A program made the translations under genes and the position numbers. From Octopus vulgaris (lineage: Eukaryota), in contig OX597840.1 in NCBI GenBank assembly GCA_951406725.2, forward strand, positions 2,294,001-2,358,000: a DNA stretch of 64,000 nt, in the 5' to 3' direction. Below, piece by piece: positions 7,858-41,159 of this stretch. The notes beneath the pieces are model-generated. The model did no database searches. It saw nothing but the letters and a program-made list of their open reading frames with translations, and was not told where the DNA came from. How positions within the stretch are numbered: the stretch's first letter is position 1; the number at the start of each line of letters is the position of its first letter.

Positions 7858-8263
7858 CAACGTGTTAGAATCCGACGATCACTATCTAAAATTTTTGGTT
7901 TTCTTCCGGAGTTTTGTTTCACAGATGAGGTTTTTTCCCCTCTTTCTCAAAACCTGTCATTACTTTCGAGACGTTACTTCTTGATACCTCAAACATTTCG
8001 GCTGTTTTCGTTACCATAGCGCCTGTCATACGAGCACCAACAATTTGACCTCTTTGAAATTCCGATAGATCTCTTATTTTAGTTAATTTTAATAACCTTT
8101 TTCTGATGATATCTGAAAAGAAACATCAGCTTTAGCAAAAGATATTAAGCAACACTAATAATAAAAAAAAATAAGAAATAAACAAGCATTTGACGGTTTT
8201 ACAGATAATTCAAATGTATGATGCGATGATGATAGGTGTTTTCATTATTTTGTCCAACCCATG
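7858..8263 (-). mobile_element. Tc1-type DNA transposon left end: TIR plus transposase N-terminal HTH relic
   Basis: Minus-strand translation DLSEFQRGQIVGARMTGAMVTKTAEMFEVSRSNVSKVM, frameshift, then KQNSGRKPKILDSDRRILTR. Terminus TA|CATGGGTTGGACAAAATAATGAAAACACC at 8263 resembles a Tc1 TIR with TA target. Confidence 0.85.
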
Positions 8264-38122: not shown

Positions 38123-38290
38123 ATTAGAGATAAAACCACTATTAGGCAAATCAAACAATGAAAAACTTAAGCCAATACATAAAATTAATTAATTTATATT
38201 ATTTTAAATATATATATATATATATATATATATACGGAGATGTACTCGCATAGCAAGTAATTTGATCCGAGATCGTGTGCTGAAACGAAA

Positions 38291-38574
38291 ACAATTGCAG
38301 CGTGGAAGGTGTTTATAAGCCATTTAAGAAACACACAAAAGCCGTTCGATTCACTTCAACATTTAAGTTTAATTTGTCAAAATATTTTCGTCGCTTTAAG
38401 ACCGCAACCTGTTCCCTGACAAAGTCCGTGCTGCATCTCGGACTTTGTCAGTGAACAGGTCGCGGATTTTAGCGACAAAAATATTTTGACAAATTAAACT
38501 TAAATGTTGAAGTGAATCGAACGGCTTTTGTGTGTTTCTTAAATGGCTTATAAACACCTTCCACGCTGCAATTG

Positions 38575-38575
<1 letters not shown>
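38291..38575. repeat. Near-perfect fold-back (arms 38291-38428 and 38439-38575) inserted in (TA)n; probable inverted Penelope-like terminus
   Basis: ACAATTGCAGCGTGGAAGG...AAAGTCCG / CGGACTTT...CCTTCCACGCTGCAATTGT; each arm carries a hammerhead-like motif. Confidence 0.92.
38444..38493 (+). ncRNA. Type-I hammerhead-like motif with G3-C8 core (mirror copy at 38373-38423, minus strand)
   Basis: Consensus of the two arms: TTTGTCA-GTGAACA-g-GTCGC loop GCGAC-GAAA-ATAT-TT-TGACAAA. 7-bp stem I, 5-bp stem II, palindromic stem III AATATT. Confidence 0.6.
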
Positions 38576-38615
<40 letters not shown>

Positions 38616-39200: not shown

Positions 39201-39226
39201 TCACCACGGATGACACATTGGATTTT

Positions 39227-39610
39227 GGAAGCACTCCGTCGGTTACGACGACGAGGGTTCCGGTTGATCCGAATCAACGGAACAGCCTGCTCGTGAAATT
39301 TACGTGTAAGTGGCTGAGCACTCCACAGACACGTGCACCCTCAACGTAGTTCTCGGGGATATTCAGCGTGACACAGAGAGTGAAAAGGCCGGCCATTTGA
39401 AATACAGGTACAACAGAAACAGGAAGTAAGAGTGAGAGAAAGTTGTGGTGAAAGAGTAGAGCAGGGGTCGCCACCATCCCCTGCCGGAGCCTCGTGGAGC
39501 TTTTTAGGTATTTTCGCTCAATAAACACTCACAACGCCCGGTCTGGGAATCGAAACCGCAATCCTATGACCGCGAGTCCGCTGCCCAAACCACTGAGCCA
39601 TTGCGCCTCC
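39227..39610 (-). mobile_element. SINE family C with tail 1 and a 13-bp target-site duplication
   Basis: Full head, body and tail; CCACGGATGACAC at 39204-39216 and 39609-39621. Confidence 0.92.
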
Positions 39611-39777
39611 ACGGATGACACTACTACTAGGATCTAAGAATAATACCGGCGCAAATATTAAAAACGATAGATATATTCAGAATAGTCGCTACCAATGGAT
39701 TTATTTAGAACAATTCCAACCGTTACTGCTACAACCACAACAGGTCACTTTTAGGAGACTTGACTACTAAAGAAGGT

Positions 39778-40162
39778 GGAGGCGCAATGGCCTAGTGGTT
39801 AGGGCAGCGGACTCGCGGTCATAGGATCGCGATTTCGATTCCCAGACCGGGCGTTGTGAGTGTTTATTGAACGAAAACACCAAAAAAGCTCCACGAGGCT
39901 CCGGCAGGGGATGGTGGTGATCCATGCTGTACTCTTTCACCACAACTTTCTCTCACTCTTACTTCCTGTTTCTGTTGTACCTGTATTTCAAAGGGCCGGC
40001 CTTGTCACTCTCTGTGTCACGCTGAATATCCCCGAGAACTACGTTAAGGGTGCACGTGTCTGTGGAGTGCTCAGCCACTTACACGTTAATTTCACGAGCA
40101 GGCTGTTCCGTTGAGACGGATCAACTGGAACCCTCATCGTCGTAACCGACGGAGTGCTTCCA
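39778..40162 (+). mobile_element. SINE family C with tail 1
   Basis: Inverted near-copy of 39227-39610. Confidence 0.92.
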
Positions 40163-40511: not shown

Positions 40512-41159
40512 GATATATGTCTGTAACTATGTATGTATACATATATATATATTCAAATATATATATATATATATATACATACATGCATGTATATATATGT
40601 GTCTATATGTCCATATATATATGATGCATACATATTTATATGTGTGTATATGTCCATATATATATGATGCATACATATTTATATGTGTCTATATGTCCAT
40701 ATATATATGATGCATACATATTTATATGTGTGTATATGTGTATATATATATGATGCATACATATTTATATGTGTGTATATGTGTATATATATATGATGCA
40801 TACATATTTATATGTGTGTATATGTGTATATATATATGATGCATACATATTTATATGTGTGTATATGTGTATATATATATGATGCATACATATTTATATG
40901 TGTGTATATGTGTATATATATATGATGCATACATATTTATATGTGTGTATATGTGTATATATATATGATGCATACATATTTATTATATGTGTATATCAAT
41001 GTATGCATATGTAAACATTTATATTCGTAATATAATTTTTAATTCTTTTTTATTTGTAAAGATACATATATACATTTGTGCGCGCGTGTGTGTGCGCGTA
41101 TACGCATGTATATAGGTGTATGTGCCATATATATTTGTATAAAGAGAGAAAGATACTGA
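40512..41159 (+). repeat. Local duplicate of ~36715-37063 carrying an expanded 43-bp minisatellite (~9 units)
   Basis: ATGATGCATACATATTTA starts at 40621, 40664, 40707 ... 40965. Flanks match 36721 and 36900-37063. Confidence 0.9.

Follow-up and report, generated by a model that had tools for sequence, protein, structure and literature searches.

Endonuclease-containing (EN+) Penelope-like elements (PLEs) are recognised by inverted truncated copies, a one-sided tail and a bias towards (TA)n tracts (PMC8557442), and metazoan PLEs carry minimal type I hammerhead ribozymes (Cervera and de la Pena 2014, PMC4209133). For the anole Poseidon element PAc, the protein has been modelled as a dimer, and the engineered double swap C3G/G8C only partly rescues its hammerhead, which needs this protein (Frangieh et al. 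2024, PMC11167929). For hammerheads in general, an engineered G3/C8 double swap likewise gives partial rescue (PMC8495972), and a G3-C8 variant was more active with G17 than with C17 (PMC3884650). We analysed a 64,000-nt stretch of the Octopus vulgaris genome (assembly GCA_951406725.2, contig OX597840.1, positions 2,294,001–2,358,000; the window, whose numbering is used below). An inverted repeat at 38291–38575 carries in each arm a hammerhead-like motif with a G3-C8 core, and G3-C8 proves to be the majority state of the PLE family to which the arms belong.

The hammerhead topology that the initial annotation had described in both arms was recovered: each motif consists of a 7-bp stem I, the core GTGAACA, a 5-bp stem II, GAAA, AATATT and a UUU site. 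In the right arm, the minimal type I hammerhead (38444–38493, plus strand) pairs 38444–38450 with 38487–38493 as stem I, places the core at 38451–38457 (G3 at 38451, C8 at 38456) and stem II at 38459–38476, and continues with a G12>A change at 38477, AATATT and the UUU site. An extra G between A9 and G10.1, overlooked in the initial annotation, is bulged at 38458, and the predicted cut site lies after 38486, with numbering inferred from the 16-row alignment described below. The left-arm counterpart (38373–38423, minus strand) is damaged by U4>G at 38415. One private core lesion per arm had been claimed; one lesion in each arm is indeed present, but G12>A is a recurrent CpG change that is not private to the right arm, and the arms differ in loop II as well, because they derive from two subfamilies. 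Both copies in the window are dead (U4G, G12A). Folded alone, each adopts the two stems I and II, with z scores of −4.3 and −3.2. A descriptor of the intact minimal hammerhead that allows any Watson-Crick 3-8 pair gave no match in 20 of 20 resampled windows, nor did it match the damaged copies of the window.

Exact pattern searches returned 6572 family matches, comprising 6040 with G3-C8, 181 with another letter at position 3 and 351 that retain G3 but depart from C at position 8, while reversed-pattern controls returned 0. We further drew a position-ordered sample of 99 copies by a downstream anchor; a core filter that fixed G5 and A6 dropped 32 truncated or damaged copies, and the 67 with a recognisable core had G3 in 64, C8 in 67 and G12 in 65 cases. 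The majority core reads U4 G5 A6 A9 G12 A13 A14 (G5 and A6 being fixed by the filter), within a three-way junction of helices I and II, A15.1-U16.1 and an NUH site. The swapped pair with intact U4 and G12 is therefore the majority state of the family, as had been proposed for its consensus. The C3/G8 identity of the CUGANGA consensus is replaced throughout the lineage, and a CTGANGA motif search does miss the motif, as anticipated. Independent public sequencing runs contain it, with no variant of at least 5% listed at positions 3 or 8.

A sister family at 62–63% reverse transcriptase (RT) identity and further families hold a homologous motif directly before the open reading frame (ORF), there with C3-G8 (5626 C3-G8 matches vs 25 in the control), which bears out that the motif is a true hammerhead homologue. 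In a 16-row alignment of five families, 93% of cells pair (slid controls at most 45%) and the covariation score was reached by 0 of 500 shuffles, both figures being inflated by related rows. Both sides change in 6 of the 12 pairs, including 3-8 (CG 12, GC 4) and 15.2-16.2, and double changes also occur in pairs of stems I and II. The stems and the 3-8 pair of the family thus covary with those of the sister families. Rfam scans gave no hammerhead match for the G3-C8 motif or for the canonical C3-G8 sister motif, so that the swap alone does not account for the miss. The same genome holds three unrelated U3-A8 hammerhead-like motifs (L122:8564, 8927 and 9148) and an unrelated canonical C3-G8 one (L125:4458).

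The swap appears to be old. With positions 3, 7 and 8 left free, one loop type yielded 14 matches (10 G3-C8, 2 A3-C8, 1 C3-G8 and 1 C3-U8). Nine of the 14 are old relics that differ in loop II and have a shorter helix III; these comprise 7 G3-C8 and 2 A3-C8, with C, G or A at N7. For another loop type, a count by eye of the first 100 among 160 matches gave 76 C3-G8, 9 U3-G8, 6 C3-A8, 4 G3-C8 and 5 singles. A 65-row tree calculated with positions 3 and 8 masked contains a branch with 98/98 support that parts 39 C3/U3-type rows from all 19 G3-C8 rows. Internal branches are long, the G3-C8 rows are interspersed with a U3-A8 row on a long branch and with a C3-U8 row, and a single G3-C8 clade is not rejected (p-AU 0.25). 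This tree is unrooted; we take C3-G8 as ancestral because it is the general hammerhead state (PMC4209133). Position 17 follows the lineage: among rows that could be scored, the C3 lineage has C17 in 17 of 21 and the G3 lineage U17 in 15 of 17, with 22 of 60 rows not scoreable. U17 in the G3 lineage would avoid a G3-C17 pair, and the pattern fits the higher activity of the G3-C8 variant with G17 than with C17 (PMC3884650). Judged from these alignments, G3-C8 is probably a natural, compensated swap that selection has retained. An origin through G3.G8 as an ancient intermediate was rejected, since G3.G8 copies nest among recent subfamilies. Such copies outnumber the mirror transversion at position 3 roughly ninefold (about 151 vs 16, scaled from the first 100 listed of each) and are often present in both arms, in several subfamilies (L165/L166, L230, L251, L252).

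The host of the motif, which the initial annotation had not recognised, is a PLE: the fold-back consists of two head-to-head short copies of the end of an EN+ element, namely its pseudo-long terminal repeat (pLTR) and ORF start. The arm family is large and dispersed (40 scored of 529 candidates in a first search, 96–100% identity; 8639 exact matches for a 23-mer downstream of the motif). Walking upstream of arm copies leads through a microsatellite-rich 3′ untranslated region (UTR) into an ORF that ends in a GIY-YIG domain (PF01541, above the Pfam cutoff), whereas the Pfam RVT_1 match to the ORF is weak (E 0.084). One locus (L110) has a 1025-aa open frame in which RT motifs and a CX3CxxC linker are recognisable by eye, the linker preceding GIY-YIG in the translations of L110 and L075. 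The protein has 218 homologues, the best named one (54% identity) being a hypothetical protein that bears the label Octopus vulgaris. The zinc-finger linker fits the CX2-5CxxC form of the Neptune/Nematis clade, to which the element may belong. Hammerhead, tail and ORF start follow one another in tandem at L112 and, for the sister family, at L117, and this order identifies the arms as pLTR end plus first ORF codons. The tandem pLTR arrangement, with the 3′ end of one copy ahead of the next ORF, is thus present at both loci, and inverted 5′-truncated copies and the one-sided tail also occur in the family. A metagenome scan for the lineage in other animals gave 6 matches, and tblastn showed none of them to be similar to the element.

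Within the window, the fold-back lies between two (TA)n microsatellites, at 38208–38233 on the left, the insertion target, and at 38576–38615 on the right; most family copies sit in (TA)n. The left arm (38291–38438, minus strand) is a short copy of a middle-aged subfamily with a 9-nt loop II and reaches from the likely transcription start, the A of AGATGCAGC at 38438, to the first family-wide cluster of 3′ ends. It alone is extended by a 57-nt tail (38234–38290, minus strand; ORF nucleotides about +34 to +90), likewise absent from the initial annotation, through which the element reaches 38234 and which stops at the second 3′ end cluster. The first 30 ORF codons (38234–38323, minus strand, beginning MAYKHLPR) are in frame with the RT/GIY-YIG ORF of L112 and L110. 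The right arm (38439–38575, plus strand) is a second short copy, of the youngest subfamily (8-nt loop II), which lacks the tail and ends with the first 11 ORF codons (38543–38575). With the two hammerheads on opposite strands, one transcript contains one sense and one antisense copy. RNA folding predicts for the read-through RNA a single long hairpin (−218 kcal/mol, z −31.7), in which both motifs would be buried in double-stranded RNA. The fold-back is no ribozyme device, and the duplication in it is not a functional one: it results from the way of insertion and would keep the motif sequestered. At locus L061 (7960–8035), A>G and T>C differences were much commoner in two runs guessed to be RNA than in two large runs (runs X2, X13, X15, X16), with A>G at 8013 in 18% and 24% vs 0.06% and 0.05% and the difference at 7993 in 12% and 17% vs 0.02% and 0.14%. 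This excess is as expected if fold-back transcripts are adenosine-to-inosine edited; the kinds of run are guessed, the data consist of contigs, and the individuals are unmatched.

The ends of the 99 sampled copies point to the way in which they arose. At the 5′ side, 52 start at −27 to −13 from G3 and 5 extend further upstream. Of the 39 copies that start at the A of the likely transcription start, 22 are preceded by G (11 of the 22 single copies, 11 of the 17 fold-backs), while the templated letter at this place in longer copies is C or T in 10 of 10, so that the preceding G is untemplated. Copying of the cap by RT is known from LINE-1, and we infer that a capped 5′ RNA end was copied here as well. 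The 3′ ends cluster at ORF +27 to +37 (38 copies) and +88 to +94 (51 copies), and we liken these clusters to the two sites within the ORF at which RT starts in the anole element (PMC11167929). A 5′ end peak at the cut site was sought and rejected, none being present among the 99 copies. As to a splice acceptor at the 5′ cluster, contigs of 8 runs, in which repeats were skipped, gave no shared first exon and no splice joint. The letters upstream of the cluster resemble a branch point and pyrimidine tract. A sharp 5′ start was not seen in the sister family, the 5′ ends of which are scattered.

These ends suggest the following pathway. Transcription would start at a capped position some 22 nt upstream of G3; RT would start internally at ORF +33 or +92 and read through the uncut hammerhead as far as the cap; two complementary DNAs (cDNAs), sometimes from two different RNAs, would be primed at a cut in (TA)n, with both strands used, and joined at their ends, resulting in a fold-back. 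The copies would accordingly represent reverse transcripts of uncut RNA. Arms from different subfamilies occur in 3 of 32 fold-backs (the window, L236 and L267), three further apparent arm mismatches being point changes. Two-subfamily fold-backs fit the use of two RNA templates in one insertion; later gene conversion may also have produced such arms.

Two other accounts of the fold-back were considered. It might be a self-contained non-autonomous unit, a miniature inverted-repeat transposable element (MITE) or hairpin RNA copied whole with the hammerhead as a passenger: full fold-backs make up 21 of the 30 best-matching loci fetched, many with the same central junction, and another junction recurs 7 times among the 99 older copies. 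The best matches, however, are a sample biased towards copies that resemble the query; single-arm copies begin at the same place as fold-back arms and long copies run into the ORF, and fold-back junctions vary by microhomology, 3 of 32 joining two subfamilies. We regard such a unit as improbable, and it leaves the reading of the core unchanged. An assembly or chance artefact of the fold-back or the motif deserves next to no credence. Long perfect inverted repeats can be library chimeras, but the arms here differ by subfamily-type changes, dispersed copies number in the thousands, the motif is present in independent runs, and its descriptor has no chance matches in resampled windows; for the motif, the artefact reading is refuted.

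As to function, we consider it probable, though well short of certain, that the G3-C8 motif cuts weakly, as a dimer or helped by the element protein, and that the swap is kept by selection. Cutting is favoured by the conserved core and its pairing and by the partial rescue that the engineered double swap brings about in PAc (PMC11167929) and in general (PMC8495972). Helix III, which also speaks for it, is a perfect palindrome (AAUAUU), through which two direct copies in tandem full-length elements could pair and cut after U17; only copies in direct tandem, as at L112, would allow a double hammerhead. Several observations weigh against weak cutting: (i) engineered G3/C8 rescue is only partial, and hammerhead mutants of the anole element insert normally (PMC11167929). 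(ii) Only 4 of the 99 copies start within +33 to +38 around the predicted cut, with no excess over neighbouring positions. (iii) The youngest sister subfamily (family B; L113–L118, L190–L219) carries A9C (CTGATGC), yet dominates the matches listed and has intact 1310–1312-aa ORFs, older subfamilies having A9. This core change is expected to hurt activity, and the most active family possibly bears a crippled ribozyme. (iv) Unpaired 3-8 cores seem to be copied too: G3.G8 copies are enriched (43 G, 43 T and 14 A among the first 100 of 351 position-8 variants, counted by eye), recent and nested, and are found in both arms in 4 of 7 fold-backs. (v) In the predicted monomer, a G3.U17 wobble lengthens stem I and competes with G3-C8; at −27.2 kcal/mol the designed double hammerhead falls 4 kcal/mol short of a competing dimer fold (−31.3), and helix III by itself is only marginally stable (−0.2 kcal/mol). 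(vi) The swap and the change at N17 each happened probably only once, so that the counts are not independent and the support for selection is qualitative, not statistical.

Much of this also speaks for a hammerhead descendant that has lost cutting in vivo and whose fold now serves a different purpose (binding of the element protein, shaping of the 5′ UTR or of the RT template), the 3-8 pair being kept for structure or by inertia. Copies that span the uncut site, the success of the A9C sister family and the recurrence of G3.G8 copies agree with such a descendant, as do the dispensability of hammerhead cleavage for insertion in vitro (PMC11167929) and the proliferation of Naiads without hammerheads (PMC8557442). 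On the other hand, U4, G5, A6, G12, A13, A14, A15.1 and U16.1 are fixed across lineages in which loops, helix III and N7 have turned over, part of this constancy being imposed by the search patterns, and two changes that jointly re-establish precisely the tertiary 3-8 pair, together with a matching N17, are hard to explain without an active fold. We therefore hold the loss of cutting to be possible but rather doubtful, and retain weak cutting under selection as our reading.

Two further features of the window lie apart from the fold-back. A second, unrelated inverted repeat (39226–39612 and 39776–40162; 387 nt, 95%) apparently consists of two opposed copies resembling short interspersed nuclear elements, with a tRNA-like head recognised by eye; ARAGORN found no tRNA in this repeat. 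A young 43-nt tandem array occupies 40558–40996 with 10 copies and 95% matches.

Comparison with described systems places the element among EN+ PLEs. Neptune/Nematis-type elements (PMC8557442) share with it the C-terminal GIY-YIG, the CX3CxxC linker, the (TA)n bias, the inverted truncated copy and the one-sided tail, which measures 30–40 nt there and about 57–60 nt here. The anole element PAc (PMC11167929) has two internal RT starts in the ORF that define the tail, as proposed here; it cuts and extends both strands of DNA, prefers AT-rich targets and uses uncut RNA as template, all of which can be likened to the pathway proposed above. In PAc the ORF starts inside the ribozyme, here about 57 nt past the cut site; the Neptune/Nematis-type linker sets the present protein apart, and C3G/G8C, engineered there, is the natural state here. 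With the minimal type I hammerheads of metazoan PLEs (PMC4209133) the motif shares the pLTR location, G10.1-C11.1, the NUH site, the extra nucleotide between 9 and 10.1, a tiny palindromic helix III as in Drosophila virilis, and thousands of dispersed truncated copies with opposite-strand pairs. The bulged nucleotide is G here and H in their consensus, and the 56 rows of their Fig. S3 show only C3-G8, U3-A8 and one U3-G8 where the octopus motif has G3-C8. From its sequence, the motif thus resembles these hammerheads in all features except the C3/G8 identity, and weak cleavage is predicted.

Natural U3-A8 covariants (Perreault 2011, PMC3088659; Schistosoma families, PMC4209133) are likewise Watson-Crick exchanges of the 3-8 pair; they require two transitions via a wobble, whereas G3-C8 needs two transversions via a mismatch. 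A literature search, which missed some relevant papers and supplements, found no report of a natural G3-C8 hammerhead. Our pattern searches gave one clear case among 18 swapped-pattern matches, against good stems in 115 of 126 fetched canonical-pattern matches; the case, in a viral contig (L471, IMGVR_UViG_3300019776_000919, 98375–98569), is a well-formed type I G3-C8 hammerhead with stems of 5, 5 and 10 bp. What appears to be new here is an animal G3-C8 lineage with thousands of copies and canonical sisters in the same genome, together with the deep retention of G3-C8 despite turnover of N7 and with a matching state at N17.

We tentatively combine these comparisons into a joint reading: a long-lived animal Penelope clade would have acquired a working G3-C8 hammerhead through a permissive change from C17 to U17, its short copies would be complete cDNAs from the cap to the internal starts, and its two-subfamily fold-backs would prove in vivo that two RNA templates serve one integration. 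G3-C8 would then now be the commonest hammerhead core of the clade and invisible to CUGANGA searches. If the motif cuts, nature uses the reversed 3-8 pair at scale, and hammerhead censuses built on CUGANGA or U3-A8 undercount. The sister elements provide a matched natural series (C3-G8-C17, C3-G8-U17, G3-C8-U17, G3.G8 and A9C) for tests of core epistasis and of the purpose of Penelope hammerheads, and clustered copy ends with two-subfamily fold-backs make the model of internally primed, two-strand Penelope integration testable from genomes alone.
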